The notes under the pieces are model-generated. The model was not told where the DNA came from. It was given only the letters and a program-made list of their open reading frames with translations, and did not search any database. The position numbers and the translations under genes were made by a program. Shown piece by piece: positions 13,412-32,859 of a DNA stretch of 64,000 nucleotides. Source of the stretch: an uncultured Methanoregulaceae archaeon. Lineage in GTDB: Archaea; Halobacteriota; Methanomicrobia; Methanomicrobiales; Methanospirillaceae. Numbering within the stretch: the stretch's first letter is position 1; every line of letters begins with the position of its first letter. Where the stretch lies: contig OY969564.1 in the NCBI GenBank assembly GCA_963701095.1, forward strand, positions 1,312,001 through 1,376,000. Direction: 5' to 3'.

Positions 13412-13774
13412 ATGAGAAGAGAGTTCCATCTTATAATCGGCATCCTTGTATTTTTCGTTTATGCATATCTGCTCCATGGTATTCAGTCTATTACAATAGG
13501 CTATTTTGTCCTCGGATTTTGTGCAGTTATTATCGGATCAATCCTGCCTGATATACTGGAACCAGCGACAAACTCAAAACACCGGGGAATATTCCATAGC
13601 TGGGGGGCTCTGAAATGTATTGTATGCATTTTCGGGATTTCCGCGTTAACCGACTTAGTATTAGCGCTGCCTGAATCAACCAAAGTGATGGTCTTTCCCG
13701 TATCCTGTTGTGCCCTCGGATATTCGTTTCATCTTCTGGCTGATTCCACAACAAGAAGGGGACTCCCGACTTAA
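13412..13774 (+). CDS. Membrane-bound metal-dependent hydrolase (YdjM-like)
   Basis: H near N-terminus, GSILPDI, HRGIFHS, GY.FHLLAD motifs. Confidence 0.75.
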   Translation: MRREFHLIIGILVFFVYAYLLHGIQSITIGYFVLGFCAVIIGSILPDILEPATNSKHRGIFHSWGALKCIVCIFGISALTDLVLALPESTKVMVFPVSCCALGYSFHLLADSTTRRGLPT

Positions 13775-13793
13775 AAAAGGAAATACGAGACAA

Positions 13794-14762
13794 TTATCCT
13801 TGTTTTCCAAGAATCCCGGTAATCGCTTCGCCGAACTCCATTGTCCCGGCAGAACCCCCGATATCCCTTGTACGGATGCCGGAAGCCAGTACCTTAGTTA
13901 TAGCTGATTCTATCCGTCCGGCTCCTTCATTGTCCCCGAGATACTCAAGAAGCATTGCAGCGCTCCGCAACGCCGCCACAGGATTCGCGATGTTCTTACC
14001 TGCTATATCCGGGGCACTGCCGTGAACCGGCTCAAAAAGGGCGTACCTGTCGCCGATATTGGCACTCGGGACAAGGCCAAGGCCTCCCACAAGATATGAT
14101 GATACATCAGAAAGGATATCGCCAAAGATGTTCGTGGTTACGATTACATCATAAGCCTCTGGGTGCTGAAGAATATCGAGACTCAGTGCATCGATGAACT
14201 TGTCATTGTAAACTATTCCCGCTTTTTTTGCTTCAGCTATGCAGATGTCACGGAAAAAAACGTCGGATTTGAGAACATTTGCCTTGTGCCCTATGGTGAG
14301 TTTTCCTTTTCGTTGGTGTACACACCGTAATGCTGCTCGTGCGATCCGTTCTGTTCCCCTACGGGTCACGACCCGGAGCGTTGTAGCACGATCCTGTTCT
14401 ATCTCTTCGATCCCCGAGTACAAGCCTTCAGTGTTCTCCCTGACAATCATGATGTCAAAACCGTCACCCCGGATGGGCCTCAAGTTTGCAAACAGATCGA
14501 GCGCTTTACGAATCCGTAGAACAACGCTTTGGTAATCTTTCATCGGCGGTGTCGTTATTGCCCCGAACAGTACGGCATCAGCCGTTTTGAGCGCGGAAAT
14601 GTCGTTATCTTTGCAAGGGCACCCTGTTTGTTCCCAACGCCCATAACCTACCTCTACCGGGAAGAAGTCATAATCGGGATGAAGCAGAAAGAGCACTTTT
14701 TGTGCGACCGGAATCACCTCATGACCGATCCCGTCACCTTCGACTATAGCAATCCGGGTCAT
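13794..14762 (-). CDS. aksF: Homoisocitrate dehydrogenase (2-oxosuberate pathway)
   Basis: GDGIGHEV, RENTEGLYSG, HKANVLK, NIFGDILSD, FEPVHGSAPDIAGK; last gene of the aksADE operon. Confidence 0.8.
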   Translation of the reverse strand: MTRIAIVEGDGIGHEVIPVAQKVLFLLHPDYDFFPVEVGYGRWEQTGCPCKDNDISALKTADAVLFGAITTPPMKDYQSVVLRIRKALDLFANLRPIRGDGFDIMIVRENTEGLYSGIEEIEQDRATTLRVVTRRGTERIARAALRCVHQRKGKLTIGHKANVLKSDVFFRDICIAEAKKAGIVYNDKFIDALSLDILQHPEAYDVIVTTNIFGDILSDVSSYLVGGLGLVPSANIGDRYALFEPVHGSAPDIAGKNIANPVAALRSAAMLLEYLGDNEGAGRIESAITKVLASGIRTRDIGGSAGTMEFGEAITGILGKQG

Positions 14763-15560
14763 CTTTTCCTCCAAAGGGTGACCAGTTCCCGGACAGACCG
14801 GGCAATCTTTGCGGGATCCGCCCCCCAATGGACTATTGCACCGAACTTATCGTTCCATGTACCGATACCTTCACGTTCGGCCCGGCAGCACCGGGCAATA
14901 AACGGCTCTTCTTTTACCTGTTCCAGAGGACAGATATTTTCGAGCTCAAAATCCGTGCCATAGCATTCGGTACAGAATTGCTTTGCCGTAAGACAACCGG
15001 CGACACGTTCACCCCCCTGAAGAGGATCGGCATCCAGTGTCCGTAGATAACCCGCGGCCCTGCAGGGATAAACATCAGCAGGGACTAAAGTGATGTCACG
15101 GATATGATAGTCAAACGCTACCGAGAGTTCTCCGAAAAGTCCGATTGCCTCCATTTCCATAAGGCTCGCCGAAAGGGTCGGACGGGGCGGAATGACATCG
15201 TAGATGTGAATCGTGAGGAATCCTGACAGATCCGGATCAAGTACAAATGTTACGTGCTCATCAATACCTGTAAAAATGGTACACCGGTGCCCGCTTTCAG
15301 ATGCGAGCCGGACCAGCCGGACCCTGTCGTTGAGCTGTACTTTCTCCGGGAACCAACAAACTTCTTCGGGAGTCGCCAGAATCTTGGAGGATATAACTTT
15401 CCTCATAACACTTTTCAGCTGCCGGATCAAGAGTAACTTCAAGTATCTCGTATCCCCGATCCGTCTCATGCAGAAGATAACGGCTCAAGGCATAAACAGC
15501 ATCACCACAAGGCCGTGTCGATGCCAGTCCCACGTATTTACATTGTTCCGGGAAGATCAC
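14759..15560 (-). CDS. Conserved-type Cys-rich hypothetical protein; frameshift near 15423
   Basis: GTG start overlaps the aksE stop and its TGA overlaps the aks[15 protein letters not shown]... joins ...VMRKVISS; Cys motifs YPCRA, AGC..C..C, ICP, RCCR. Confidence 0.7.
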
Positions 15561-16028
15561 CGGCGAGCCCTCCAGTATTTCACAAGGCCACCAGCCATTA
15601 GGATCTCCTGCATCCGGGGTGACAGCGGGCAAATAGTATATCGTTTTCCTCTCGACTCTACCCATCCACCCGAAAGGTCAAATTCAATCGTGCTTCCTTC
15701 TCCACAGGTAAGATCCGATTCGATAAGCGGAAGGCCTATGTTAATTGCATTCCGGAAAAATATCCGGGCAAATGAGGGGGCAATAACGGCAACCACTCCG
15801 GCCTCCCGTAAGGCAAGAGTCTGCCTGTTCCCGGGATGAGCCACACCCGAAATTTTTGCCAGCGACAATCACGGCACCTTTGAGACGAGGGGCAAGCAAA
15901 GGATCGAGATCTTCGAACACGTGAGTCGCCCAGACATCATAATCCTTGGTCCGTAAGTACCGGCCGGCAATTATAACGTCGGTATCGATATCCGCCGGGA
16001 GACATACGGCTATCCCTCTCCCCCGCAT
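15557..16028 (-). CDS. aksE: Homoaconitase small subunit; frameshift near 15820
   Basis: [14 protein letters not shown] (YLRT loop characteristic of methanogen homoaconitase), [13 protein letters not shown]; continues as [16 protein letters not shown] in another frame. Confidence 0.85.
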
Positions 16029-17239
16029 TATCCTACCTCCGGTGATGTCATTTCGCCTTCGAGAGCGCTTGCCGCTGCCGTTGCAACGGATCCGAGGTAA
16101 ATTTCTCCGCCAATACCCATTCGGTTTTTAAAATTCCTGTTTGCCGTTGATAAACAGACTTCGCCTTCTCCAAGTACCCCCATATGGTAGCCAAGGCAAG
16201 GGCCGCATCCTGGCGTTCCGATGGTGCATCCGGAACCGACGATATCTGCGAGTACGCCTGTCCGGATTGCTTTTTCGAGAATTGAGGCTGAAGCCGGGAC
16301 AACGATGGTCCTCACGGCAACTTTCTTTCCCCGGACCAACCGGGCAAATCTGGCGAGATCAGAATACCGGCCATTTGTACAGGTGCCGACAAAGACCTGG
16401 TCGATTGGCACACCTGCTACCGCATCTACGGGTTTTACCGTGTCCACACGGTGAGGTACAGCGACAAGGGGTACGATATTGCTGAGATCGAAATCGAGTT
16501 CCCTACGGTATATACAGGATTCGGGTTCCTGACACAACACATCATGTCCATGCTCCTTCAGGAAACGGATAGTAACGTCGTCTGAATAGAAAAGCCCCGT
16601 TTTTGCCCCTGCTTCGACAGAAAGGTTTGCAAGAACGAGACGTTCATCCATGGACAGGTAGTGCACGCCTTCTCCCACAAACTCAAGTGCATCATAGGTC
16701 GCACCGTCAGTACCGAGTTTACCTATGTAGGCAAGCGCCAGATCCTTGGCTTCCGCAGCTCCCGTCAACCTGCCGGTCAGATTGATACTGATTGATTCAG
16801 GAACCCGGAACCAGGTTTCACCGGTCAGCCAGATGGAAGCCATATCGGTTGCGCCCACGCCGGTTGCAAACGCTCCGAACGCACCCATCGTAACACTGTG
16901 GGAGTCAGCACCAACAACAATCTCACCTGGCAGTACAATACCTTCACTCATCAGCTGATGGCAGATACCACAGCCAACGTCGGAGAACTGCATAGACGAT
17001 CTCTTCGCAAAATCCCTGAGATCATGCTGGAGTGCCGCCGTTGTACTATTATTGGCAGGGGCTATATGGTCAAACTGAATATAATATCTGGTATCTTTTC
17101 CCAGCCGATCTCCACCCATATTTTTCCATGCCTCTAGTGCAAGGACACCGGTTCCGTCATGGGCATATGCCCTGTCAACTTTCCGGTCTACATATTCCCC
17201 AGCAGATGCACCAAGAATACGTTCGGAAAGGGTACTCAT
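16028..17239 (-). CDS. aksD: Homoaconitase large subunit
   Basis: HDGT, DHIAP, GICHQ, GADSHS, GTCTNGR, CGPCLG, STANRNF aconitase motifs. Confidence 0.85.
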
Positions 17240-18366
17240 ACTGTAGTCTCCCGTTGTACCCGTCGGATCAGTTTCTGGAGAATTTCAGGGGTAATACTGC
17301 ATTTCTGTTCGGAATGTTCCTTGACAAGATCCAGCACCCGGCATATCTGGGCCTCTGATAGTTCCTCGCCAAGTGAAGCAATAATGTGTTCGAGCGCCTT
17401 TCTCCCGGTATGTTTACCAAGAATAAAGTGACGTTCGCCCCCTACAAGGGCTGGGGGGAAGTACTCGTAGGTTGACGGATCTTCAAGAATTGCCGCAATA
17501 TGAATGCCACTTTCATGCGAGAATGCAAGATCTCCGGTTATCGGTTTGTTTTTCGGAAGCATAATGCCCGAATATTTTTCCACTTTTTTGGAAAGTCCTG
17601 ACAGGTGTGAAAGATCATACCGGTCTATCCCACCTTTTGTCCGGAGGATTACCAGCACTTCCTCCAGTGCTGCATTACCAGATCGTTCGCCTATACCGTT
17701 GACTGTCGTGTGGAGCTGGAAAGCACCGGCCTGTGCGGCAGTAACCGTATTTGCGACAGCACATCCCATATCGTTGTGGCAGTGAGCGCAGAATGGACGA
17801 TCAACAGAAGAGACAAGATCTGTCATAATCGTTCGCATCTCATCCGGGATCAGGCATCCTACCGTATCCGCAAAACTGAGCAGGACAGCCCCGTGATCAG
17901 CTGCACGCCGGTAAACTTCCTTGAGAAAAACAATATCGGTCCGGGATGCATCCTCAGCCGCAAACCTAACAGCAACCCCGTGGTCCCTGGCGAAATCGAT
18001 CATGGAAAGGGCATCTTCTAGTACTTTTTCGCGAGGTTTTCGGAACTTAACCCGGATATGGAGATCTGAAGTGGGGATAAAGATGGAAACCATATCAACA
18101 CCGCAGTCTATGGCTGCTGTGATATCCTCTTTCCTTGCCCTTGCAAACCCGCAAATCCGTGCATCAAGCCCGAGATGTGCGATCGTTTTTACGCACTGTT
18201 TCTCGTTTTCAGAAACTGCCGGGAACCCGGCCTCTATCACTTCAACACCGACAGCATCAAGTGTTCGGGCGATATCAATTTTTTCTTCGCAGGAAAACGA
18301 CACACCGGGTGTCTGTTCTCCGTCTCGCAGCGTTACGTCACAGATTTCAATATTCCACGGTTTCAT
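17236..18366 (-). CDS. aksA: Homocitrate synthase / 2-oxoacid elongation synthase
   Basis: DVTLRDGEQTPG, HCHNDMG, GIGERSGNA, HESGIH, LGKHTG; no LeuA-type C-terminal regulatory domain. Confidence 0.8.
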   Translation of the reverse strand: MKPWNIEICDVTLRDGEQTPGVSFSCEEKIDIARTLDAVGVEVIEAGFPAVSENEKQCVKTIAHLGLDARICGFARARKEDITAAIDCGVDMVSIFIPTSDLHIRVKFRKPREKVLEDALSMIDFARDHGVAVRFAAEDASRTDIVFLKEVYRRAADHGAVLLSFADTVGCLIPDEMRTIMTDLVSSVDRPFCAHCHNDMGCAVANTVTAAQAGAFQLHTTVNGIGERSGNAALEEVLVILRTKGGIDRYDLSHLSGLSKKVEKYSGIMLPKNKPITGDLAFSHESGIHIAAILEDPSTYEYFPPALVGGERHFILGKHTGRKALEHIIASLGEELSEAQICRVLDLVKEHSEQKCSITPEILQKLIRRVQRETTV

Positions 18367-19618
18367 GATGAGCTCCTTTTGGGCACTGTGCTTCGACCAC
18401 AACTGTTAACGGACCATCCGGGTAGCGGATAATATCACGGAGGCGACTTTCATCTTCAGCGGGACAGATTTCCGGGTCTGCCCAATCGATGTAGCGGGCA
18501 GGATTACTCACGGGTTGGCCTCCAGTCATCGCGGCGCAGTGATTGCTCATAACAATACACAAGAGGGAGAGCCTTTTTTCATATACATCGATAAGGGCAT
18601 TGAGACCGGAGTGGAGTAGTGCATAGTCACCTATTAGTGCCACATGAGTACTCCGTGCCGCAACCGCAATACTCGAACCCATCCCATAGCTCGCAATCCC
18701 CAGTTCGTACGGTGGGTTCATCACAAAAACCGAGCACCCGGCATCACATATCAGGCGCATTCCTTTTTCCCTGAGGATACCAAGGAGGGGTTTATAAGGA
18801 CACACGGCACAGAAAGTCCGGCCAAATCCCCGTTCTTCCAGTGATTCCGGCCTTTCCTGTTGAGCCGGGGGTGCATGAGTTCGATGATCCTGTACAAAGG
18901 ATCGGCCGTACTCATTCACCTTCGGAAACGATGCAACACGCTCTGGTACCGGATTGACTGTCACGAGTCGGGAAACCCCCGGTGCAGGACCTGCACCGAG
19001 AATTCCTCCCTTCCACTGGTTCAGGGGTGACATTTCCGACCACATAAACATCGTGCGGTAAGTTTCCTCTGCCGCAGTAACTCTACCGTGCATTGTCCAG
19101 GACTTGTCGGCAAGCTTTCCTTTTCCCTGATGCCGGGGAACGGGGGTACCTGAGATCTCAGCGTCTAACAGATAATGTGTAAGCCGGAGCATGGCGACAC
19201 GGGAAAATCGTTCCGATGCCTCAAGGGCTGATTCTACACCGGTAAAACAGGTCTCGTCGTCAGGCTCAATTACGGGAAGCTCTGCCAGTTCCCCGTAATA
19301 CCGGGAATCCTGCGCTGTCTGGGAACCTTTGGCTTCAGGATCGTCACCTACAACGAGAATGATGCCTTTTTCGATACCTTGTACTGATGCCTGGGCAAGG
19401 GGGTCAGCACACGCGTTCACTCCCACATTTTTTATTATAACTGCAACGCGTTGACCGGAGAGGGAATCACCAAGCGCATACTCAAGTGCCGTCTTTTCGT
19501 TGATGACCAACTCGGCACCGGTTAATGTGCCAAGTTCTGTTACCGGAAAACCTGGAACGGTATATTGACGGTCAGTACCTGCACGTATTGCCCGAGCCAG
19601 CGCTTCAGCACCTTTCAT
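18347..19618 (-). CDS. ThDP-dependent enzyme, IorA-like, without a beta subunit
   Basis: VPGFPVTE, NEKTALEYALG, KNVG.N..ADP, SQTAQDSR, C..CP, DAGC, GD..LLHSG...N...MTGGQ. Confidence 0.8.
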   Translation of the reverse strand: MKGAEALARAIRAGTDRQYTVPGFPVTELGTLTGAELVINEKTALEYALGDSLSGQRVAVIIKNVGVNACADPLAQASVQGIEKGIILVVGDDPEAKGSQTAQDSRYYGELAELPVIEPDDETCFTGVESALEASERFSRVAMLRLTHYLLDAEISGTPVPRHQGKGKLADKSWTMHGRVTAAEETYRTMFMWSEMSPLNQWKGGILGAGPAPGVSRLVTVNPVPERVASFPKVNEYGRSFVQDHRTHAPPAQQERPESLEERGFGRTFCAVCPYKPLLGILREKGMRLICDAGCSVFVMNPPYELGIASYGMGSSIAVAARSTHVALIGDYALLHSGLNALIDVYEKRLSLLCIVMSNHCAAMTGGQPVSNPARYIDWADPEICPAEDESRLRDIIRYPDGPLTVVVEAQCPKGAHHETVEY

Positions 19619-20582
19619 TCGTCCCTCCCGGGCACAAGGTCGCAACCCCCGCAAACCGTGCACATGGTCAGCGCACTTGAAGTGTCAAGTCCGTTACGGG
19701 ATAAAGCCCGGCTGTGTTTTGCAAAGAGTTTTTTGAGTCTTTCAGCCGAAGGCCGTGATTGTCCCGCATACCCTGCAACCGGATTAAGAGGTCGAAGCAC
19801 CGGGATCACGCCATGAGATGTGAGTCTATCGATACAAGCCTCCATTTCTTCGTCGGTTTCACCGAGCCCGACAATTACATTGGAGAAAACCCGGCCTTTC
19901 CCGAAGAGTTCCACGGAACGATCAAGAATCCGCCAGAGGAGTTCATAATCGAGACCCGGGCACACTGCTTCAAAGAGGTCAGGTGTTGCAGCCTCAAGAT
20001 TAAATTTTACTTCCGCTACTCCAAGGGCATGGAGCTTGTCTGGAGTCTGATCTGTCGGGTAGATGGAGACCCCAAGAGGCAGGCCAAAGAACTTCAAATG
20101 ATCGATAACCTCACAAATGTAATTCTCCTCCTCTTCAATACTATCATAAACGCCGCTTGTCAGCGATATGGCACTCACACGGTGCCGGACGGATTCGACG
20201 AGATCCATAATTTCTTCTATAGTCTTGCGTTTTCCCGAGAGCCGCGGAACTGAACAATAGCGGCAGGAGAATATACAACGTTCTGTAACTGTGATAAATG
20301 CCTGATCCGGGCAGTGAAGCCCCGCCGGAGGAGTCTACCGGAGATCTGGCGATCGCCTAAATACAGATCGGCAACTCCATCACCCCGGTGAATAATTTCG
20401 ACTCGGGAGGTTTGGTTAATGGCCAACTTTACCCGGTGGCCGCCCATAGCAAAAAAAACCGAACCCTTTCCGCCGGCACCGGGTCCGGCAGTAGATTTTG
20501 CAATAAATTCATCGGCAGCTTCTCCACTAAGACGGGCAGAACCGGTCTCAAGTAACAAGGCCTTTAGATCTTCCCATTGCAT
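19615..20582 (-). CDS. Radical SAM protein; frameshift near 20323
   Basis: After a one-base correction reads ...LHCPDQAFITVTERCIFSCRYCSVP (CxxxCxxC); also STAGPGAG, IVGLGETDEE and a C-terminal CTVCGGCD. Confidence 0.85.
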
Positions 20583-21460
20583 AATTTGAGTGCCTCCTCA
20601 TAGCGGGTATAAAATGGCAGGGCAGTTACTGCCCCGGTAATTCCTCTACCGTCCATGACTATGTGAAGAGAGGGATCATCAATTTCCCTGACAAGATCCG
20701 GTGTCACTTCCCCCCGTTTGACTTTTCTTGCGTAATCCAGCAGCTCTTGTGATGGGGTAAAACCCGTATAAACCGCCATTCCGGTCTTTTCTGATAGGGT
20801 ATATCTTTGGAGAAACTCGCTAAACTTACTGATGAGAGATTCCGGTTTTGTGGTACCAAATTCAGCAACGAGACTTACACAATTCTTTGTCCGAAATGCT
20901 ACCGGGAAGAGCTGGACAATCGTATGCGACAGGTACGAGGTGTGTTCATCTTCGACTGCACGTGCAAGGTTATGGACAAGCGTCCACGTTGCACCTTCTT
21001 CAGATGTATCGGTGTCGTCCACTCCGATAAGCACCCGCTGACGCCGGGGCAGCCAGAGCGTCGCAGCTGCTACTTTTCCTCCGCCGGCTGGATCACAGTG
21101 TTCCCGCAGTACTCCACGGGCCGCAGCACGGCAGGATGTGGCACCGACCCCACCCCCGCCCATACCAATATAAGTGACCGCTATTTCATCTCCCGAAACG
21201 GATACCCCTGAGATACCTGCAGGGAACCTGGATCCTTCCAGTGCGAGATTCTCATTACCAGGATGTAGCAGGAACCGGGTTGTTCCTCCCACGCACCTGA
21301 CATTCTCAACAAGTGGGCTCTTGGCGTAATGGTGTTGGGTCCACATCGCACCGCCTATACAGTCAAAAAATTCGACTAACTCGACTTTGCTACCGGTATC
21401 ATCTGCCATCGCCACGATCTGGGGATACCTGATGATATAAGGTTCAGAGATGTTCACCAT
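20564..21460 (-). CDS. Methanogenesis marker protein 11 (TiaS-like domain), paralogue 1
   Basis: VELVEFFDC.GGAMW, G.GGGGVGA..CR, IGVDDTDT.EEGATW, KNCVS. Confidence 0.8.
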   Translation of the reverse strand: MVNISEPYIIRYPQIVAMADDTGSKVELVEFFDCIGGAMWTQHHYAKSPLVENVRCVGGTTRFLLHPGNENLALEGSRFPAGISGVSVSGDEIAVTYIGMGGGGVGATSCRAAARGVLREHCDPAGGGKVAAATLWLPRRQRVLIGVDDTDTSEEGATWTLVHNLARAVEDEHTSYLSHTIVQLFPVAFRTKNCVSLVAEFGTTKPESLISKFSEFLQRYTLSEKTGMAVYTGFTPSQELLDYARKVKRGEVTPDLVREIDDPSLHIVMDGRGITGAVTALPFYTRYEEALKLCNGKI

Positions 21461-22400
21461 ACAGACCCGCCGCCTCAATCCCCCGGTTCCCCCAGAGCAC
21501 TGCACCTAACGCACCAATCCTTCCCTTTCTACCGTTCCTGTCAAGAAACTCGACACCCAGCCTCCGGGCTTCCCGCTCAGTATCTTCAAGAGCAACAATC
21601 TCGGTTTTGATAGTCTTATGCATCGGGGACTCCTCAACTGTCCCAATTCCTCGGACCACTGCAATTCCGGTATCATTCGAGAACGTATGCTCTTCTATAA
21701 ATGAGCGAACAAATTCGCAAAGCGGCCCAGTGCTCCCAGGACGGGTGGCGAAATTGAGTGCGGAACACACGCAGTTTGTAGTTTTATGAGGGACTGCAGG
21801 GTTAAGCTGGACAAGACGCATACCGAGGAATTCCACACCTTTGATACGACATGCTTCAGCACATTTGAGTGCTGTAACCCATGTCGCACCTTCCTGTTTG
21901 GTATCCGTATCGTCAATGCCGAAACAAACTTTCTCGTACCGGGGGGTTACGATTCTCACGTGATTTATCCGGGCGCCGCCTATTTTCAGATCATCTTCGG
22001 AGGGATATTCCGACCGGAGGACTCCAGGAGCCTGCGGAAGGCATGCAGCAATGCCGACACCGGCACCGGCAATTCCCACCCAGGTTGTCATGACCTCGTC
22101 ATCTTTTACTTCAACTGCTTCCAGTGCCTGTCCCCCAATCGTTTCCGACGCTGCCCCGAAGTTGATCGCATGTCTGCCGAAGCGTGCCCTCATCGTCATC
22201 ATTTTTCCTTCAACATTGCACGCGATCATTGCACCACCTGCACGAGATCGGTTCATGGCATCCCACTCTATTGTTCCCCGGGCATGGCACTGCTCAAGAA
22301 TTTCAGCAAGCCCTGTCTTTTCGTCGACCATTACCAAAAATTTCTTCGAGAAAAGCTGGCCAAACCGTTGCTTGACATCATCCGGAGTAAGTATGATCAT
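21444..22400 (-). CDS. Methanogenesis marker 11-like (TiaS-like domain), paralogue 2
   Basis: GIAGAGVG.AAC, FGIDDTDTKQEGATW, RLVQLNPAVPHKTTNC, GRIGALGA. Confidence 0.75.
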   Translation of the reverse strand: MIILTPDDVKQRFGQLFSKKFLVMVDEKTGLAEILEQCHARGTIEWDAMNRSRAGGAMIACNVEGKMMTMRARFGRHAINFGAASETIGGQALEAVEVKDDEVMTTWVGIAGAGVGIAACLPQAPGVLRSEYPSEDDLKIGGARINHVRIVTPRYEKVCFGIDDTDTKQEGATWVTALKCAEACRIKGVEFLGMRLVQLNPAVPHKTTNCVCSALNFATRPGSTGPLCEFVRSFIEEHTFSNDTGIAVVRGIGTVEESPMHKTIKTEIVALEDTEREARRLGVEFLDRNGRKGRIGALGAVLWGNRGIEAAGLYGEHL

Positions 22401-22482
22401 ATTATCGCCGAAATTTTCGTTAACAAATCTATCGGCAATAACACTATTTATAGGATTCTATTTTGCCGAAAAAAGAGAGGAA

Positions 22483-23367
22483 TTAAAGAACGTTGGAAAG
22501 TTCGATCTTGAACGGTCCAAGAGTGCCGCCAAAATTACCAGCCGAGATAAATTTTATGCCGGGAACTTGCACTGCAGCCTTGATACCTGCTCCCATCGCA
22601 GCAGCCACACTTTTCTCATCGATACCATCGATAACAATTTCATAGACTGCTTTGACACCGGCGGGAACCTTGCTGTCCGAAACTTTCTCACGGAGTGTGG
22701 GACAGTATTTCTCATTAGTCGATGCAGTCATGAATTTGTACTTCAGACTACCGACCTTTGACCCGCTTGCCACGATGCCCCCGGGGAAACTTGTAATGAC
22801 ACCTTTTACATCCGCGATGGCATCCGATGCCGCTTGGGCTGCCATGAGCGCTGCCATCTGGTTCTCTCCCATGATAAAGAAGTTACCACCGGCAACACCT
22901 TTTACAATGCCAAATTCTTCTTCGCCGATATATTCGCCGTTCATGATCGGGATCACCCAGCATTTCCTGCCACCAACTTCTTTCTGATACTCGTACCCGT
23001 CACCAAAGAAATGGAGTTTTACCGGGATCTTTTCCTCAGCAGTGGTGATACCGTTGAATACTGCTGTAGTAGGTGCAGTTAGTACGCATTCGGCAAGACG
23101 TTCGACGACCTGCTCTTTGAGTTTCTTCTTGCTTGCACAGATGAGAATCGAAACGCCCGGCCTTCCATCGGGCGTCTCGCTGCCGGAAAGGACGCTCTCA
23201 ATACCTGCTTCGCAAGGGCAGCCAATCGCAGATGTCGCAAAACCGGTGGCTTCCGTTGCCGCCTTAAGTGCCCAGTCTTTTGTTACTGCGGTGATAATAA
23301 CCCGGCAGACCCAGGTAGGGAATGCCTCCGCGTAGGTGTTGTCAATTGTTACGCCATTAATTTCCAT
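22483..23367 (-). CDS. ftr: Formylmethanofuran:tetrahydromethanopterin formyltransferase
   Basis: MEINGVTIDNTYAEAF, ATGFATS.IGCPCEAG, TPDGRPG, AGGNF, GSKVGS, SAGNFGG.LG. Confidence 0.97.
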   Translation of the reverse strand: MEINGVTIDNTYAEAFPTWVCRVIITAVTKDWALKAATEATGFATSAIGCPCEAGIESVLSGSETPDGRPGVSILICASKKKLKEQVVERLAECVLTAPTTAVFNGITTAEEKIPVKLHFFGDGYEYQKEVGGRKCWVIPIMNGEYIGEEEFGIVKGVAGGNFFIMGENQMAALMAAQAASDAIADVKGVITSFPGGIVASGSKVGSLKYKFMTASTNEKYCPTLREKVSDSKVPAGVKAVYEIVIDGIDEKSVAAAMGAGIKAAVQVPGIKFISAGNFGGTLGPFKIELSNVL

Positions 23368-25118: not shown

Positions 25119-25700
25119 ATGGCAAAAACAAAAGGTTACCCGGAAGCGCTGGAGAAAAAACTCCACGATCAGCGGTATTACCGTGAAGACTCGAATCCTG
25201 ACTTTATTAAGAAAGTCGAAGGGAGTTCACGAACCATCGCCCATATGTGCTATCAGTGCGGCACCTGCACCGGCTCGTGTCCTTCTGCACCTAGAAGTAC
25301 CTACCGTATCCGCAAATTCATGCGGAGAGCTGTTCTTGGGCTTGAGAATGAAGCGCTCACCGATCCAGATCTCTGGCTCTGCACCACGTGTTACAGCTGC
25401 ACCGACCGTTGCCCCCGTGACATTGCACCCACTGATGTTATAATGTCCATGAGGAACATGGCATTCACCCGCGATATTATACCGGTGAACTTCCTCAAGA
25501 CCGTGCAGGCAATCTATAGTTCCGGCCACGGTGTGCCCAATAATGACGTTAACCGTGCAGCCCGGGAAAAACTCGGACTCACTCGCGACCCGCCGACCAC
25601 TCATATGTACCCTGAATACATGCCGGCCATCAGGAAGATCATCGACCACTACAACCTCAAGGCAAATGCCGACCGGATTGTCAAGGAACGGGAGGGATAA
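25119..25700 (+). CDS. hdrC: Heterodisulfide reductase subunit C
   Basis: CYQCGTCTGSCPS and LWLCTTCYSCTDRCPR. Confidence 0.95.
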   Translation: MAKTKGYPEALEKKLHDQRYYREDSNPDFIKKVEGSSRTIAHMCYQCGTCTGSCPSAPRSTYRIRKFMRRAVLGLENEALTDPDLWLCTTCYSCTDRCPRDIAPTDVIMSMRNMAFTRDIIPVNFLKTVQAIYSSGHGVPNNDVNRAAREKLGLTRDPPTTHMYPEYMPAIRKIIDHYNLKANADRIVKEREG

Positions 25701-25706
25701 GAGAGC

Positions 25707-26630
25707 ATGTCAGAATCCAAAGCTAACCATACGTTCGCGTTATACCTTGGCTGTATTGCACCGAACCGGTACCCGGGTGTAGAATCCGCGTCCATCAAAG
25801 GATTCAAGAAACTGGGTATCGATCTGGTCCCCCTCAAGGGAGCAAGCTGCTGCCCGGCCCCCGGTGCGTTCGGTTCCATCGATCTGAATGTTTTTTACGC
25901 TATGGCGGCACGCAACCTTGTACTCGCCGAACAAATGAAGACTGATATTGCCCTGGTCTGCAACGGCTGCTACAAGTCAATCTGGGAAGTTAACCACAAA
26001 CTCAAACACAACAAGGATCTCCGCGATAATGTCAACGAAGTACTCAAAGAAGTTGACATGGAGTTCAAGGGAACTATCAACGTCTATCACGTTGCCGAGC
26101 TTCTCTATAACGACAAATTTGCAGGAGTCGCTAAAATCAAGGACACTGTGGTAAATCCATTGACCGGTGCACGTATTGCCGTCCACTACGGCTGCCACCT
26201 TACCAAACCCCACAAGGACCGGGAGTTTGAAAAGGAGGTCATGTTAAACACCGAGTGTCCGACTTGGATGGAAGAGCTCGTCGCAGCCATTGGTGCAACA
26301 CCGGTTGAGTACCGCAACAAGATGCAGTGCTGCGGCGCCGGTGGTGGCGTCCGCGGTTACGATATCGTCCACTCGCTGGATATTACCAACGAGAAGCTGA
26401 TCAACCTTAAAGAAGCAAAGGTGGATGCATTAACCGATATCTGCCCATTCTGCCAGCTCCAGTTCGACCGCGGCCAGATCGAGATCAAGGAGAAATTCGG
26501 TGTAGAGTACAATTTACCAGTACTGCATTTTGCAGAGCTCCTCGGTCTTGCACAGGGAATGAGCCCACAGGAACTCGGGCTTGACCTGCACGGAATCAGC
26601 TGCGAACCATTCCTGCAGAAGGTGCTGTGA
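25707..26630 (+). CDS. hdrB: Heterodisulfide reductase subunit B
   Basis: LGCIAPNRYPG, SCCPAPG, CNGCY, HYGCH, CCGAGGG, CPFCQLQFD (two CCG domains). Confidence 0.96.
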   Translation: MSESKANHTFALYLGCIAPNRYPGVESASIKGFKKLGIDLVPLKGASCCPAPGAFGSIDLNVFYAMAARNLVLAEQMKTDIALVCNGCYKSIWEVNHKLKHNKDLRDNVNEVLKEVDMEFKGTINVYHVAELLYNDKFAGVAKIKDTVVNPLTGARIAVHYGCHLTKPHKDREFEKEVMLNTECPTWMEELVAAIGATPVEYRNKMQCCGAGGGVRGYDIVHSLDITNEKLINLKEAKVDALTDICPFCQLQFDRGQIEIKEKFGVEYNLPVLHFAELLGLAQGMSPQELGLDLHGISCEPFLQKVL

Positions 26631-26640
26631 GGTGGTAAAG

Positions 26641-28806
26641 ATGGTCGAAAAGAAGAAAACAACTACCAAAAAGACCGAGACCAAGAAACAGGATACCAAA
26701 AAGCAGGAAACTAAAAAGGAGGCTCCCGTGAAACAGGTAGTTAAGAACCAGGATCCCGCACCGGTCGCAAAATCTGTCTCAGCACCAGGTTCAACAACGA
26801 AACAGGAAGCACGTATCGGTGTCTTCATCTGTCACTGTGGAACCAATATCGCCGGGTCAATGGATATCCCGGCCGTGGAGGAATATGCAAAGACCCTCCC
26901 GAACGTAGCCTATGTTGACAATTACAAGTACATGTGCTCGATGCCAGGGCAGGCTGTGATCAGTAAGGCAGTCAAGGAGAACCACCTTACCGGTGTCGTA
27001 GTTTCTGCATGCTCGCCCCGTCTTCACGAGCCGACCTTCAGGACTGCGACAAAGGAAGCCGGCCTGAACCCGTTCCGGTTCGAAATGGCAAACATCCGTG
27101 AGCAGAACTCGTGGGTGCACATGCACGACCGTGAAGGTTCAACCGAAAAGGCCAAGGATGCGATCAGGATAGCAGTAGCAAAGGCAGCACTTCTTCAGGA
27201 TCTCTTCCCGAAGACCGTGCCCGTTGAGAAAGCGGCGATGGTCGTCGGCGCAGGTGTCGCAGGTATGCAAGCAGCCCTTGACCTTGCAGCAGCAGGTATC
27301 AAGACCTACCTCATTGAATCCGATATGAGCATCGGTGGGCGCATGTCCCAGCTCGACAAAACTTTCCCGACACTAGACTGTTCGCAATGTATCCTTACTC
27401 CGAAGATGGTGGATGTCGGCAGAAGCGATATGATCGAACTCATGACCTGGTCCGAAGTCCATGAAGTCGAAGGGTATATCGGTAACTTCGATGTTACCAT
27501 CCGCAAGAAAGCACGTGGTGTGTTGACACCCAAGGAAGCGGAAGCTCGTGGTATTATCGGCGGCGGCTGTAACGGTTGTGGTGACTGTGAGACAGTCTGC
27601 CCGGTTATCAAGCCCAACGAGTTCGAAGTCGGCATGAAGCCGAGGAAGGCTATCTACATCAATCACCCACAGGTAGTCCCCCTTCTGTATACGATTGACT
27701 TTAATTCCTGCATCAAATGCGGACTGTGTGTGACCGCTTGTGGTCCCGAGAAGAAGGCAATCGACCTCGAATCAAAGGACGAATTTATCAAGGTCAAGGT
27801 AGGAACAGCAATCCTTGCCACGGGTTACGATATCTTCCCCATCGAGAAAAAAGAGGAATGGGGATACAAGCGGTTCGAGAACGTCATCACGAGCCTCGAA
27901 TTCGAACGGCTCATCTGTGCATCCGGCCCAACCGGCGGTCAGCTCATCCGCCCGAGCGATGGTAAGACCCCCAAACGCGTGGCCTTCGTACTCTGTGCAG
28001 GATCGCGTGACAACACCGGTATCGGAAAACCCTATTGTTCCCGGTTCTGTTGCATGTACTCATTAAAGCACGCGCACCAGATCGCCGAGAAGATCCCCGG
28101 ATGCATTCCCTATATCTTCTATATGGATATCCGTTCGTTCGGCAAAGCCTACGAGGAATTCTACTACCGCATACAAGACGAAGGGACAAAGTTCATCCGC
28201 GGACGCGTGGCAAACATCCTCGAAGACTCCAAGACCAAGAACCTCCACGTCTATGCCGATGATACCCTTCTTGACCGCCCGGTCGATATGGAAGTAGATC
28301 TTGTCGTACTCGCCGCCGCAATCGAGCCAAAAACAGATACAAACAGGACCAGGAAACTCTTCGGTGTCTCCTGCTCAATGGATGGATGGCTCCTTGAGGC
28401 ACACCCGAAGCTCAACCCGTGCGGAACCACCACAGCCGGTGTCTTCCTTGCTGGTGTTTGCCAGGGTCCCAAAGATATCCCTGACACGGTAGCATCTGCG
28501 GAAGGTGCAGCATCCGCGGCAAGTATCCCGATTCACAAGGGAGAAGTGGAACTCGAACCGTACTTTGCAACCTGTATTGAGGAGAAATGTGCCGGCTGCG
28601 GTATGTGCGTGAACCTCTGCCCCTATAGCGCTCTTGCGCTCGTGGAAAAAGACGGAAGAACTGTCATGCAGGTTACCGAGGCCAAATGTAAAGGCTGCGG
28701 GACCTGCGGAGGATTCTGTCCTGGTGGCGCAATCTGGATGAACCATTTTGCAACACCGCAGATCGTTGCGCAGATCGATGCGTTCCTGCTCGGAGGTGAG
28801 CAGTAA
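26641..28806 (+). CDS. hdrA: Heterodisulfide reductase subunit A (flavin-bifurcating) with Lys-rich N-terminal extension
   Basis: RIGVFICHCGTNIAG, CSPRLHE, GAGVAG, LDKTFPTLDCSQCIL (Cys, not Sec), YCSRFCCMY, C-terminal ferredoxin; RBS GAGGTGG before ATG 26641. Confidence 0.97.
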   Translation: MVEKKKTTTKKTETKKQDTKKQETKKEAPVKQVVKNQDPAPVAKSVSAPGSTTKQEARIGVFICHCGTNIAGSMDIPAVEEYAKTLPNVAYVDNYKYMCSMPGQAVISKAVKENHLTGVVVSACSPRLHEPTFRTATKEAGLNPFRFEMANIREQNSWVHMHDREGSTEKAKDAIRIAVAKAALLQDLFPKTVPVEKAAMVVGAGVAGMQAALDLAAAGIKTYLIESDMSIGGRMSQLDKTFPTLDCSQCILTPKMVDVGRSDMIELMTWSEVHEVEGYIGNFDVTIRKKARGVLTPKEAEARGIIGGGCNGCGDCETVCPVIKPNEFEVGMKPRKAIYINHPQVVPLLYTIDFNSCIKCGLCVTACGPEKKAIDLESKDEFIKVKVGTAILATGYDIFPIEKKEEWGYKRFENVITSLEFERLICASGPTGGQLIRPSDGKTPKRVAFVLCAGSRDNTGIGKPYCSRFCCMYSLKHAHQIAEKIPGCIPYIFYMDIRSFGKAYEEFYYRIQDEGTKFIRGRVANILEDSKTKNLHVYADDTLLDRPVDMEVDLVVLAAAIEPKTDTNRTRKLFGVSCSMDGWLLEAHPKLNPCGTTTAGVFLAGVCQGPKDIPDTVASAEGAASAASIPIHKGEVELEPYFATCIEEKCAGCGMCVNLCPYSALALVEKDGRTVMQVTEAKCKGCGTCGGFCPGGAIWMNHFATPQIVAQIDAFLLGGEQ

Positions 28807-29261
28807 ATGTCAGCACCTGGCGACTTTAAAATCCCAGAAAGAGGCCCCGGATACTGGCAACCCAAGATCCTCGGTATGGTCTGCAACTGGTGTTCCTACG
28901 CAGGAGCGGATCTCGCTGGTGGCGGACGTATCCAGTACCCCCGGATATAAGAATTATCCGTGTCATGTGCACCGGTCGTTTCGACTCCCTCTTTGTTCTC
29001 AAGGCATTTGCCGATGGGGCGGACGGCGTACTCATCTCCGGATGTCACTTTGGAGATTGCCATTATCTTGAAGGCAACTTCAAGTCGGCAAAGAGAATGT
29101 TCATGGTAAAAAGGCTTATGAAGAGCATCGGCCTTGACGACCGACGGTTCCGGATGACGTTTGTCTCTGCATCAGAAGGTGCAAAATGGGCAAAAGTCGT
29201 TACCGACGTTGTAAATACCGTCACGGAGCTCGGGCCAAGCCCGCTTACGGAAAACAAATAA
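28807..29261 (+). CDS. mvhD: MvhD [2Fe-2S] subunit; frameshift in the C-run at 28938-28942
   Basis: [10 protein letters not shown], then RVMCTGR and GCHFGDCHY in the next frame; adding one C restores RIQYPPDIR. Confidence 0.93.
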
Positions 29262-29484
29262 ACAGACAAACCTTTGCAAACTCTGTCAAAAACCAATATT
29301 TTTTATAAGAAGCGCATCGAAAAACGAGTGTTTTTTCTATTTTTCATATCAAAAATTGTTACGTTATTAAAAAAACGTCACACTGCGTAAAATAAAGAAA
29401 GCGCAGATATATGTTATATTTGAACATTCCTTCATTTTTATGTAATATTTTTTAAGTAGTATAAAATGATTTTACGAGATAAAA

Positions 29485-29500
29485 TCGGAACCCTTATAAG
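29485..29500 (+). promoter_or_regulatory. Putative BRE/TATA promoter of the mcr operon
   Basis: GGAACCCTTATAAG about 145 nt upstream of mcrB, in an AT-rich intergenic region. Confidence 0.5.
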
Positions 29501-29643
29501 GGGAAATTGGGAATTAATCAATGTCCCGATTAAGGGGACGTGCAATAGTGACTTTCATTCATTACCAGTGACTTCTGTTAGTGACTACCAGTGTTCAGAA
29601 ATCGTACGGTATAGCATTTATAACCAGATTTGGAGGAAATTAC

Positions 29644-30957
29644 ATGGCAAAATATAAAGATGCAATCGACCTCTATGACGATGAGGGGAAGCTCTTAAAG
29701 AGCAACGTCACCATCGACAAGATCAGCCCGCTGGTCAACAAAGGCGCAGCTGGTATCATTGACCTCACCAAGAGGACTGTGGCAGTTAACCTCGCCGGTA
29801 TCGAGGAAGCACTCAAGACCGGTAAGATGGGCGGCAAGTCCAACCAGATTCTTGGTCGCAGCATGAACTGCAGCGTTGTCAAGGACTGCGATGCGATCTC
29901 GGCCAAGATCAAGGACATGGTCCAGGTCACCGATGGCGACAACACCAAGATCACCAAGATCGGCGGCGGCAAGATGCTCCTTGTCGAGGTTCCGAGCGCT
30001 CGCCTGGACGCAGCAGCAACTTATGATGCAGCATCCACATCTGTGGCAGCGGCAACCACCTATGCACTGATCGACCAGTACAAGGTCGGCATGTTCGATG
30101 GCTCTTACGTCAAAAGTGCTGTCTGGGGTACCTACCCGCAGACAATGGACATGCAGGGCGGCAACGTCGTTTCCATCCTGTCCATTCCGCAGAACAACGA
30201 AGGTCTCGGCTATGCGCTGCGCAACATCCCGGCAAACCATGCGGTCATGATGACCCACCGGAATGCAATGCAGGGTGCGGCACTCTGTGCCACCTTTGAG
30301 CAGGCCGGAGAGTTCGAAATGGGTGCAGCAATCGGCCCGTTCGAACGCGCCCAGCTCCTTCTTTACGCATACCAGGGCTTAAATGCAAACAACATTGTCT
30401 ACAGCCTCGTTAAGGAGAACGGCAAGACCGGTACCATCGGTACTGTCGTACAGAGCCTCGTCGAGCGTGCCATTGAGGACAAGGTCATCAAGGCAGGCAA
30501 GAAAGGCAAGAGCGGCTATATCTTCTACGAGACCAAGGACCCGATGATGTGGAACGCCTATGCATCAGCAGGCACCCTTGCAGCAACCATGGTTAACTGT
30601 GGTGCTGGACGGTTTGCCCAGGCAGTATCTGCAACCCTGCTTTACTTCAACGATCTGCTCGAGCACGAGACCGGCCTGCCCGGCTCTGACTTCGGCCGCG
30701 CGATGGGTGTTGCAGTCGGGTTCTCGTTCTTCAGCCACTCAATCTATGGTGGCGGCGGCCCCGGCGGATTCAACGGTAACCACGTCGTTACCCGTCACGC
30801 AGCCGGTGTCGGTATGCCCTGTATCGTAGCAGCATGCGCACTGGATGCAGGCACCCAGATGTTCGGACCTGAGGCAACCTCAAAGGTCTACCAGGACACC
30901 TTCGGGCAGCTTGACGCATTCAAGAAGCCAATCCAGGCGATCGCAAAGGGTGTATAA
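29644..30957 (+). CDS. mcrB: Methyl-coenzyme M reductase beta subunit
   Basis: MAKYKDAIDLYDD, NNEGLGYALRNI, SFFSHSIYGGGGPG; RBS GGAGG. Confidence 0.98.
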   Translation: MAKYKDAIDLYDDEGKLLKSNVTIDKISPLVNKGAAGIIDLTKRTVAVNLAGIEEALKTGKMGGKSNQILGRSMNCSVVKDCDAISAKIKDMVQVTDGDNTKITKIGGGKMLLVEVPSARLDAAATYDAASTSVAAATTYALIDQYKVGMFDGSYVKSAVWGTYPQTMDMQGGNVVSILSIPQNNEGLGYALRNIPANHAVMMTHRNAMQGAALCATFEQAGEFEMGAAIGPFERAQLLLYAYQGLNANNIVYSLVKENGKTGTIGTVVQSLVERAIEDKVIKAGKKGKSGYIFYETKDPMMWNAYASAGTLAATMVNCGAGRFAQAVSATLLYFNDLLEHETGLPGSDFGRAMGVAVGFSFFSHSIYGGGGPGGFNGNHVVTRHAAGVGMPCIVAACALDAGTQMFGPEATSKVYQDTFGQLDAFKKPIQAIAKGV

Positions 30958-30973
30958 ACCCTCCAGGATACGA

Positions 30974-31444
30974 ATGACTGAAGCCACGTTCCCCCAGTGC
31001 AGGATAGTCACAGAGCGACTGCTTAATCCAGAGACTACCGAACTAATACTGAACAAAATTGTCGAGATCCCAGGTATCCGGCGAATGGTTCTCAACGGAC
31101 CACGTCTGCCGGTTACAATTACTTACGGGCCCGCAAAAGGACTTGCCAACCCCCATATAATGAGGAAGGCGATTCATGTCGGTGACCAGGAAGTGGATCT
31201 GCAGGTTCATGTGGGTACGGTACTCCTCGAGATTGAAAACCGCGACGTTATTCCCGCACTGAAGGCCGCATGCGAACAGGTCTTTACCAATTTTACTTTC
31301 CGTATTCAAGAAGGGAAATTCATGAAGACCGAACCGTCACTTGTTGATTACTGCAAGTACGGACCGGATGCGGACAAATCTATCCTTGGCCTTGCCGATC
31401 CAAGCAGCAAGTCCAGGCCCACTATCATTCAGGGAATTAAATAA
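30974..31444 (+). CDS. mcrD: MCR operon protein D
   Basis: RLL.PETTE, GPRLP..ITYGPAKG, PSLVDY.KYG; position after mcrB. Confidence 0.95.
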   Translation: MTEATFPQCRIVTERLLNPETTELILNKIVEIPGIRRMVLNGPRLPVTITYGPAKGLANPHIMRKAIHVGDQEVDLQVHVGTVLLEIENRDVIPALKAACEQVFTNFTFRIQEGKFMKTEPSLVDYCKYGPDADKSILGLADPSSKSRPTIIQGIK

Positions 31445-32082: not shown

Positions 32083-32089
32083 TTAAACA

Positions 32090-32853: not shown

Positions 32854-32859
32854 TAAGAC

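Follow-up and report, generated by a model that had tools for sequence, protein, structure and literature searches.

Coenzyme B (CoB; 7-mercaptoheptanoyl-threonine phosphate) is a cofactor that no methyl- or alkyl-coenzyme M reductase can do without, and it is hence needed for nearly all biological methane formation, as well as for the anaerobic oxidation of methane and alkanes. In M. jannaschii, the enzymes AksA, AksD, AksE and AksF elongate 2-oxoglutarate to 2-oxosuberate; to our knowledge, the genes leading from 2-oxosuberate to the finished coenzyme have not been assigned in the time since the 1990s, when an outline of the pathway was given. Which enzymes complete the coenzyme is the question raised by a nine-gene cluster of an uncultured Methanoregulaceae archaeon, in which aksA, aksD, aksE and aksF are packed together with five further genes. 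The cluster lies on the minus strand of a 64,000-nucleotide stretch of contig OY969564.1 (positions 1,312,001 to 1,376,000; assembly GCA_963701095.1), referred to below as the window, to which coordinates without a contig or locus name refer.

The aks half of the cluster is already known, and the other five genes are candidates for the late steps. No paper assigning functions to these five genes was found in open-access full text or on bioRxiv, and the CoB pathway is still called unknown in a 2025 article (PMC12068725). A transcriptome study with a 'coenzyme B gene', MA4615, was considered as evidence of co-regulation and set aside: this gene has 1548 nt and is LeuA-sized, and hence has no bearing on the cluster.

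In this study, the locus was analyzed for gene packing, intactness, conservation and homology. On balance, and by a narrow preference, the cluster is taken to be an operon for CoB synthesis from 2-oxoglutarate onward in a Methanoregula-like methanogen of the order Methanomicrobiales (the own order below), in which AksA, AksD, AksE and AksF would make 2-oxosuberate and the remaining enzymes would carry it to CoB. A preliminary description of the window, made from its letters, had proposed that the five extra genes fit these late steps; linkage to the aks genes, the context of a thiamine diphosphate (ThDP) protein and the homology of a DUF7714 protein speak for this proposal, but its scheme of two TiaS-like proteins is not general and the phyletic pattern is not universal. 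Of the individual assignments, that of the ThDP step has the strongest support, and those of the Mmp11 steps are the least certain.

Architecture and conservation of the cluster

Read 5' to 3' on the minus strand, the genes between 13794 and 22400 encode an Mmp11-like protein, Mmp11, a radical S-adenosylmethionine (SAM) enzyme, the IorA-like ThDP protein, AksA, AksD, AksE, the DUF7714 protein and AksF. All eight junctions overlap, by 1 to 20 nt, three of them as ATGA and one as GTGA. The order, the coordinates and the overlapping stop and start codons had been given correctly in the preliminary description, as had a distance of about 80 nt to the upstream ftr gene for formylmethanofuran:tetrahydromethanopterin (H4MPT) formyltransferase, which measures 82 nt. 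An oligo-T run, a feature of archaeal terminators, follows the ftr stop codon, and a box resembling the archaeal TATA consensus precedes the first cluster gene. Because of these two signals, ftr appears to be a transcription unit of its own, and the nine cluster genes are probably one operon.

The arrangement was compared in 80 Methanomicrobiales loci, namely those closest to the first sequence in a contig search with the Mmp11 alignment, of which 61 had enough flanking sequence to be judged. Since all nine genes are colinear in 38 of these 61 loci, and only the Mmp11-like gene is missing in 22 more, the arrangement is not due to chance; one locus gave no radical SAM match.

Six queries (Mmp11, DUF7714, mcrA, the radical SAM enzyme, the ThDP protein and AksE) were also run against a phylum sample of 151 genomes, comprising 150 genomes at least 90% complete and the window's own genome (86%), with mcrA accepted at E <= 1e-20. 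Family groups in the sampled phylum are designated f7, f10, f14 and so on, and class I methanogens are covered by an M. jannaschii control. DUF7714 is carried by 65 of the 151 genomes (own order 25, f7 18, f10 five, f14 ten, f23 six, f26 one) and in 64 of them aksE is no more than about 1.1 kb away, the last genome being too fragmented for a judgement. The short, ferredoxin-less IorA-like ThDP gene abuts Mmp11 in every f7 genome (18/18) and every f23 genome (6/6) and is within 4.5 kb of it in seven of the ten f14 genomes; inside the aks cluster, at most 10 kb from DUF7714, it is found in all five f10 and in nine of the ten f14 genomes. A position beside Mmp11 or aks genes is therefore seen for the ThDP gene in five methanogen groups. 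Mmp11 adjoins the radical SAM gene in 24/24 own-order genomes and 4/10 f14 genomes, and in all 24 sampled own-order genomes this pair is translationally overlapped with aks genes. The five genes form a network of pairwise partnerships, in which the ThDP protein ties Mmp11 to the aks genes. The linkage first noted in a single genome is thus not confined to it, but recurs in f7, f10, f14 and f23 and throughout the order. In addition, every genome with DUF7714, the radical SAM orthologue or the short IorA-like form also has Mmp11 and at least two LeuD/AksE-type genes; the exceptions are six genomes of f15 and one of f12, each with a radical SAM orthologue.

The function of the four aks genes is assigned by homology. 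AksA (376-388 aa) has HMGL-like and HCS_D2 domains and no C-terminal LeuA regulatory domain, whereas both AksA paralogues of the genome lie in open frames of 511 and 522 codons and carry a C-terminal extension. AksE has a YLRT loop, reportedly a substrate loop known from work on M. jannaschii, where the LeuD paralogue has IIPGRFLTIYD at the same place. Both traits had been put forward in the preliminary description in favour of the 2-oxosuberate pathway, and both are upheld by these comparisons. Only one other aconitase-type set is present in the genome, with LeuD as the sole other small subunit. The M. jannaschii pathway consists of the same four enzyme families, including an AksA without the LeuA domain and an AksE with the YLRT loop. 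However, the M. jannaschii aks genes are presumably scattered, whereas here they share one operon with five further genes, and the scores of the genes as read in the window lie below the cut-offs of the NCBIfam models of the M. jannaschii-type equivalogs. For AksE, these scores are those of the two frameshifted halves only, which gave 72.8 and 78.5 bits with HacB2_Meth (cut-off 230). The four enzymes would also here carry out the elongation of 2-oxoglutarate to 2-oxosuberate.

In the window, a frameshift interrupts each of three genes, those for the radical SAM enzyme, AksE and DUF7714, which had escaped notice in the preliminary description. The whole stretch is spanned by contigs of four soil-metagenome runs, which belong to one study and one of which may be the source of the window. 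These contigs differ from the window by two substitutions and three indels, the latter found in the contigs of all four runs: the contigs are shorter than the window by a single base at 15416 and again at 15820, and have an additional G behind 20323. The indels are exactly the three break points (in DUF7714, aksE and the radical SAM gene, respectively), and after their correction in silico the three proteins have the full lengths of Table 1 and are colinear with the intact proteins of a genome of the same genus, G076. Because the other contigs differ at exactly these sites and the corrected genes read full length, the frameshifts are errors of the assembly. The genome consists of one contig, with a completeness of only 86%, and elsewhere in it leuC (G000:C1:2043424-2044656) is read in three frames; such broken genes across the genome fit a long-read consensus with residual indels. 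Two further genes of the window are probably affected by assembly indels: mcrG (32090-32599) covers only positions 1-113 of 244, and hdrA (26581-29261) is split into a part of 741 aa and an MvhD-like part of 123 aa.

Candidate enzymes for the steps beyond 2-oxosuberate

The ThDP protein contains N- and C-terminal ThDP domains. An alignment of ten sequences has an invariant GDY..N..TGGQ motif (with G330, D331, N359, T365, G366 and Q368 invariant) and four invariant cysteines, C270, C273, C295 and C412, in the pattern C-x2-C...C...C. The ThDP domains, the GD..N..TGGQ motif and the four conserved cysteines are shared with IorA, the alpha subunit of indolepyruvate:ferredoxin oxidoreductase. However, the protein scores 140-144 bits against an IorA cut-off of 650.9, its middle domain is shortened in the own order, and the C-terminal two-cluster ferredoxin domain is missing; the corresponding motif, C..C..C...CP, is absent from 11/11 cluster-type ThDP proteins and present in the genome's own IorA. 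No iorB lies beside the gene. A sequence search of the PDB gave no match for the protein, and its predicted model, with a predicted local distance difference test (pLDDT) score of 73, matched general ThDP decarboxylase-family folds only. A search of 1.84 billion representatives with a profile of the alignment returned 5380 matches, the scores of which grade into IorA without a clear boundary; ten mid-range representatives were looked up, giving names for three clusters.

A second genomic context is provided by genome G047, in which bioB, bioW, bioU, bioF, bioD, aksA, aksD, aksE, aksF and an IorA-like gene follow each other in one string (L118:7803-17728, minus strand), and in which neither mcrA nor DUF7714, a radical SAM orthologue or any Mmp11 match exceeding TiaS level was found. 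In a quick tree, the ThDP protein of G047 falls on the cluster-type side, on a long branch and with an unsure placement. BioW activates free pimelate, and the Aks and ThDP proteins of G047 must therefore jointly supply the C7 diacid. This context points to 2-oxosuberate as the substrate of the ThDP protein, with a product formed independently of coenzyme A (CoA), and suggests that the string is an archaeal pimelate route for biotin through 2-oxosuberate. As the first step after elongation in the present cluster, the ThDP/[4Fe-4S] protein is likely to remove C1 of 2-oxosuberate without CoA, to give a C7 product at the level of 7-oxoheptanoate or pimelate.

The DUF7714 protein distantly resembles a thiol-forming enzyme. 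All five orthologues compared match the XcbA family model NF052538 with 50-91 bits over profile positions 36-291 of 293, against a subfamily cut-off of 150; by these scores DUF7714 is a distant relative of the XcbA family and not a member. The XcbA of Xanthobacter autotrophicus Py2 is a [2Fe-2S] protein that reduces sulfoethanethioaldehyde to coenzyme M (CoM) (PMC9457059). The likeness comprises a near end-to-end profile match, a richness in cysteine (five are invariant in the DUF7714 orthologues) and a thiol-cofactor context. The differences are that DUF7714 is archaeal, is linked to aksE and aksF instead of comA-type genes, forms a separate branch by score and would act on a C7 acid. On the analogy with this reaction, the matching step of CoB synthesis would be the reduction of a thioaldehyde-level C7 intermediate to 7-mercaptoheptanoate, for which DUF7714 is a candidate reductase. 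The earlier proposal that the Cys-rich protein installs sulfur is strengthened by this homology, but the XcbA subfamily cut-off is not reached. An AlphaFold model of DUF7714 (pLDDT 86) gave no Foldseek match at E <= 0.001 and, with VIA-align, generic alpha/beta matches only (Z <= 7.2, residues 114-266, within the background of the tool), HypD 2z1d being among them with a Z of 5.7; a PDB sequence search gave no match. The chances are judged to be about even that, once sulfur has been added, this XcbA-like iron-sulfur protein reduces the thioaldehyde-level intermediate to 7-mercaptoheptanoate.

BioB and LipS2 are sulfur inserters, and the nearest solved structure to the radical SAM enzyme is that of BioB (1r30, E 8e-5). 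The orthologues have invariant C103, C107 and C110 (CX3CX2C) and C308, C311 and C314 (C-terminal CX2CX2C), and an intact orthologue scores 58.4 bits with PF04055. The radical SAM core with its CX3CX2C motif is common to this enzyme, BioB, LipA and LipS2, and the second cysteine triad could hold an auxiliary cluster. However, the scores on the respective models are far below the cut-offs (bioB 21 bits against 225, lipA 23.5 against 310 and LipS2 58-65 against 270), and the enzyme has an N-terminal domain of its own, with a GPGAG motif, and is related along its whole length to the MSMEG_0568-type family. The variant_rSAM and MSMEG_0568 models match it below their cut-offs, and MSMEG_0568-type genes that adjoin Mmp11 in f8, f16 and f17 align with it over the full length. 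Orthologues also occur beside other genes: in G024 one adjoins a LarE-type sulfur transferase, and in G076 a second copy adjoins SepCysS and a homocysteine synthase. Sulfur delivery would be a plausible role for the enzyme, although the support for it is weak, and the idea that this BioB/LipS2-like enzyme with a second cysteine motif might supply or insert the sulfur of CoB is entertained with some reserve. As a separate observation, in three f15 genomes with divergent mcrA and no Mmp11 (L107:6819-8948, L108:5571-7499 and L109:4735-7252) only a few hundred bases at most separate a radical SAM orthologue from an Amidohydro_2 protein gene, and in two of these loci the orthologue is next to a flap endonuclease gene.

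The C-terminal half of Mmp11 is homologous to the TCKD domain of TiaS, the tRNA(Ile2) 2-agmatinylcytidine synthetase (PDB 3amt and 4rvz, and 3u02 from P. furiosus), and a DDTD...GATW motif is invariant in the Mmp11 alignment; the N-terminal ~150 residues gave no family or structure match. What the two proteins have in common is the kinase domain with its DDTD...T motif. With the TiaS model NF040849 the cluster proteins reach at most 36.7 bits (the value of the Mmp11-like protein) against a cut-off of 600, and Mmp11 has a distinct N-terminal half and, by its length (298 versus ~420 aa), no RNA-binding domains. The kinase domain of TiaS phosphorylates a carbonyl oxygen, which an amine can then attack, and it phosphorylates a threonine as well. 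The same two chemistries are required for CoB, in which threonine is joined through an amide bond at the expense of ATP and is itself phosphorylated. By analogy, one Mmp11 could in principle perform amide coupling, phosphorylation or both. Tentatively, Mmp11 would use ATP to activate the carboxylate for attack by the threonine amino group and/or to phosphorylate the threonine hydroxyl group.

The Mmp11-like copy forms an old clade of its own (support 100/99). In the 151-genome sample it is restricted to the own order (16 of 25 genomes) and to f14 (all ten). In three f14 loci (L115:5530-7342, L116:6371-8298 and L117:6639-8436) it adjoins Mmp4/MtxX and not the aks genes, and in G071 the gene order is Mmp4-Mmp11-radical SAM-homoserine dehydrogenase (L019). 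It would be an accessory of some lineages, and that it performs one of the two Mmp11 steps here is considered improbable. A third copy of the Mmp11 family, of ~370 aa and with ~135 bits on TIGR03280, is present at G000:C1:238151-239260 (L112:6151-7260), L113:6465-7583 and L114:5961-7079. The three genomes belong to three families and one of them is without mcrA; in each, the copy is the immediate neighbour of homoserine dehydrogenase. A role of this copy as a hydroxy-amino-acid kinase was considered and dropped, as it has an N-terminal helix-turn-helix domain and may be a regulator.

That the second half of CoB synthesis is encoded here by enzyme types new to these roles, namely a ThDP decarboxylase, an XcbA-type reductase and an Mmp11 kinase, is a conceivable but doubtful conclusion from these homologies. 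It would imply an IorA-derived, CoA-independent ThDP/iron-sulfur 2-oxosuberate decarboxylase, which archaea would also use for the pimelate of biotin, and the thiols of CoM in bacteria and of CoB in methanogens would be finished by related enzymes. Mmp11 would be a TiaS-type kinase whose substrate has changed from RNA to a small molecule, forming the amide via an acyl phosphate and/or phosphorylating threonine, and may work with the phosphotransacetylase-fold Mmp4/MtxX in some lineages.

Distribution across methanogens and competing explanations

A number of observations weigh against a CoB operon of this composition. The argument for it is mainly one of gene neighbourhood. The four cysteines of the ThDP protein, in an oxidoreductase pattern, fit oxidative rather than simple decarboxylation, and earlier labelling work is said to have pointed to 7-oxoheptanoate; the 2-oxosuberate decarboxylase of the preliminary description thus has the independent context of the biotin-aksADEF operon of G047 in its favour and the cysteine pattern against it. 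The same description had taken the two TiaS-like proteins to be ligase and kinase, which is not a general solution because the Mmp11-like copy is missing in f7 (0/18), f10 (0/5) and f23 (0/6), as well as in the 22 Methanomicrobiales loci mentioned above.

Furthermore, the control M. jannaschii, a CoB producer with Mmp11, gave no DUF7714 or XcbA-family match, so class I methanogens must finish the thiol differently, perhaps via COG1900 proteins. The COG1900 proteins MMP16/ComF, together with L-ASST, are proposed in the literature as aldehyde-to-thiol enzymes for CoM, homocysteine and perhaps CoB (PMC12068725). This published suggestion for the thiol step of CoB concerns the same chemical step as DUF7714, but the proteins are unrelated to it and are encoded outside the operon. 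The best MMP16/ComF match in the genome scores 166 bits against a cut-off of 364 (G000:C1:329813-330697, outside the window), and because this is far below the cut-off the organism may lack the usual last enzyme of CoM synthesis.

The distribution of the genes in the phylum sample also departs from that of mcrA. No Mmp11 above the cut-off and no DUF7714 were found in 23 mcrA-positive genomes (18 of f15, two of f12, two of f20 and one of f27). Only one LeuD/AksE-type gene is present in 19/19 f15 genomes, both f20 genomes and the f27 genome, all of them drafts, and these three groups may lack the whole route rather than contradict a CoB operon. No mcrA was found at the threshold used in five well-assembled genomes with Mmp11 above the cut-off (G062, G070, G077, G082 and G071), nor in G090, which also has Mmp11 but is fragmented. 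The Mmp11 family was originally defined as methanogen-only, and in these five genomes it extends beyond that definition. In both mcrA-less loci examined, those of G062 and G071, Mmp11 pairs with an MSMEG_0568-type radical SAM gene; because the pair occurs in genomes without a found mcrA, it cannot be exclusive to CoB. Profiling against mcrA, as suggested in the preliminary description, thus yielded linkage and co-occurrence in methanogen families, but not the pattern of a universal CoB pathway.

Three further contexts count on the same side. In f7, f10 and f23 no other member of the set is linked to the radical SAM gene. Among four genomes with an adjacent pair in f14, Mmp11 and the radical SAM gene lie among cobamide genes (cobD, cbiB, cobS, cobY, cobT) in two loci: in L007:1392-7752 and L009:3644-8950 they follow cobD-cbiB-cobS-cobY-sized genes, of which those of L007 alone are annotated, with cobT following in L007. 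The product of cobD is threonine-phosphate decarboxylase, and threonine phosphate is common to cobamide and CoB chemistry. In G024 (f10, L013:5144-8454), Mmp11 stands directly after ycaO-tfuA, the genes for thioglycine modification of McrA, and a gene for a HycI-like maturation protease.

Several of these contexts would also fit if only the aks genes, and perhaps the ThDP protein, served CoB, with Mmp11 and the radical SAM enzyme being an older general module riding in the operon, the product of which would be another small thiol or amide metabolite or an RNA modification such as that made by TiaS. This explanation, to which a modest chance is given, draws on the Mmp11 genes of the five well-assembled genomes without mcrA and their homologous radical SAM partners in G062 and G071, on the lack of linkage of the radical SAM gene to aks or Mmp11 in f7, f10 and f23, on its orthologues in six f15 genomes without Mmp11 and on the two f14 cobamide loci. 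However, Mmp11 abuts the ThDP gene throughout f7 and f23, and this gene elsewhere abuts aksA; moreover, the pair overlaps translationally with the aks genes throughout the sampled own order, and the class-II Mmp11 clade is distinct from the copies of the mcrA-less genomes.

It is less probable that the maturation or post-translational modification of methyl-coenzyme M reductase, rather than cofactor synthesis, is the task of Mmp11, either alone or together with the radical SAM enzyme. The cluster lies 7-12 kb from mcrBDCGA, mcrA is at most 20 kb from Mmp11 in 15 of 25 own-order genomes, the G024 locus places Mmp11 after ycaO-tfuA and the maturation protease gene, and we know of several McrA modifications that still have no assigned enzyme. 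However, Mmp11 is present in the five genomes without a found mcrA and absent from 23 with mcrA, the proteins with which it is constantly associated act on small molecules (the ThDP protein and the Aks enzymes), and overlapping junctions tie it to aksA-F.

The operon of G047, the position of BioB as nearest solved relative of the radical SAM enzyme and the role of 2-oxosuberate, from which CoB and biotin alike have reportedly been proposed to derive, would also suit a cluster devoted to biotin, with pimelate coming from the Aks and ThDP proteins and sulfur being inserted by the radical SAM enzyme in the manner of biotin synthase. Biotin synthesis is nevertheless unlikely as the purpose here, and very much so, because BioB matches in the genome reach at most 32.8 bits, with a cut-off of 225, and BioF gave no match; in addition, the cluster enzyme barely registers on the bioB model, and the distribution of the set follows methanogen families. 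Finally, the alternative raised in the preliminary description, that the extra genes build the polycarboxylate tail of methanofuran, found no support and is hardly credible: ftr is at most 3.5 kb upstream in 43 of 49 Methanomicrobiales loci, but it is probably a separate unit, set apart by the oligo-T run and the TATA-like box, and is near the genes within the own order only and not in the f7, f10, f14 and f23 loci examined; Mmp11 is missing from 18 of 24 genomes of f8, a group that we take to use methanofuran, and we know of no chemical link from 2-oxosuberate to the methanofuran tail.

Neighbouring features and significance

Hdr and Mcr are the enzymes that regenerate and consume CoB, and their genes lie close to the cluster. 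On the opposite strand, 2 kb beyond ftr, a polyferredoxin gene is followed by hdrC, hdrB and hdrA and then by mcrBDCGA, so that hdrCBA and mcrBDCGA together are 2-12 kb from the cluster. About 1.1 kb downstream of mcrA, past an open reading frame of 238 aa without a family match, there is a gene for a peptide-modifying radical SAM/SPASM protein (35658-36818; TIGR04083, 702 bits). The features of the region are collected in Table 1.

Table 1. Coordinates of the cluster genes, putative transcription signals and neighbouring genes in the window.
Feature	Position	Strand	Evidence
hdrC, hdrB, hdrA (+MvhD part), mcrBDCGA	25119-34545	+	divergent from cluster
ftr (formylmethanofuran:H4MPT formyltransferase)	22483-23367	-	NF002554 446 bits
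Oligo-T run after ftr stop	22469-22474	-	read from intergenic sequence
TATA-box-like TATAAATA, putative operon promoter	22445-22452	-	~48 nt upstream of start codon of first cluster gene
Mmp11-like paralogue, 318 aa	21444-22400	-	PF22641 TiaS_TCKD 55 bits; TIGR03280 190.6 bits, below cut-off 255.8
Mmp11, 298 aa from MVNISEP start	20564-21460	-	TIGR03280 331 bits (scored frame 20564-21505), above cut-off 255.8
Radical SAM enzyme, 322 aa after indel correction	19615-20582	-	CIFSCRYC motif in third frame
IorA-like ThDP protein, 423 aa	18347-19618	-	TIGR03336 144 bits against cut-off 650.9; TPP_enzyme_C
aksA-type homocitrate synthase	17236-18366	-	HMGL-like and HCS_D2 domains
aksD-type homoaconitase large subunit	16028-17239	-	NF001614 488 bits; HacA_Meth 411 bits, below cut-off 550
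aksE-type homoaconitase small subunit, 156 aa after indel correction	15557-16028	-	HacB2_Meth matches on both halves
DUF7714 protein, 266 aa after indel correction	14759-15560	-	PF24830 243.5 bits against cut-off 25
aksF-type homoisocitrate dehydrogenase	13794-14762	-	Iso_dh 303 bits; AksF2_Meth 328 bits, below cut-off 540
Oligo-T run, putative terminator	13773-13778	-	~16 nt past aksF stop

What is new here is the intactness of the genes, the phylum-wide tables, the homology of DUF7714 to XcbA, the ferredoxin-less IorA-like form with its biotin-operon context and the observation that many lineages do without the second Mmp11 copy. The operon and the recurring partnerships name four concrete proteins that can be tested. 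If a CoB operon is the correct reading, the textbook pathway would be completed and new targets for methane-mitigation inhibitors would become available. Genome surveys could then separate CoB producers from CoB scavengers; the set is lacking in 18 f15 genomes with divergent mcrA (weaker matches to the mcrA model) and in five genomes of f12, f20 and f27. The biotin-aks operon, in turn, would explain the source of pimelate in some archaea.

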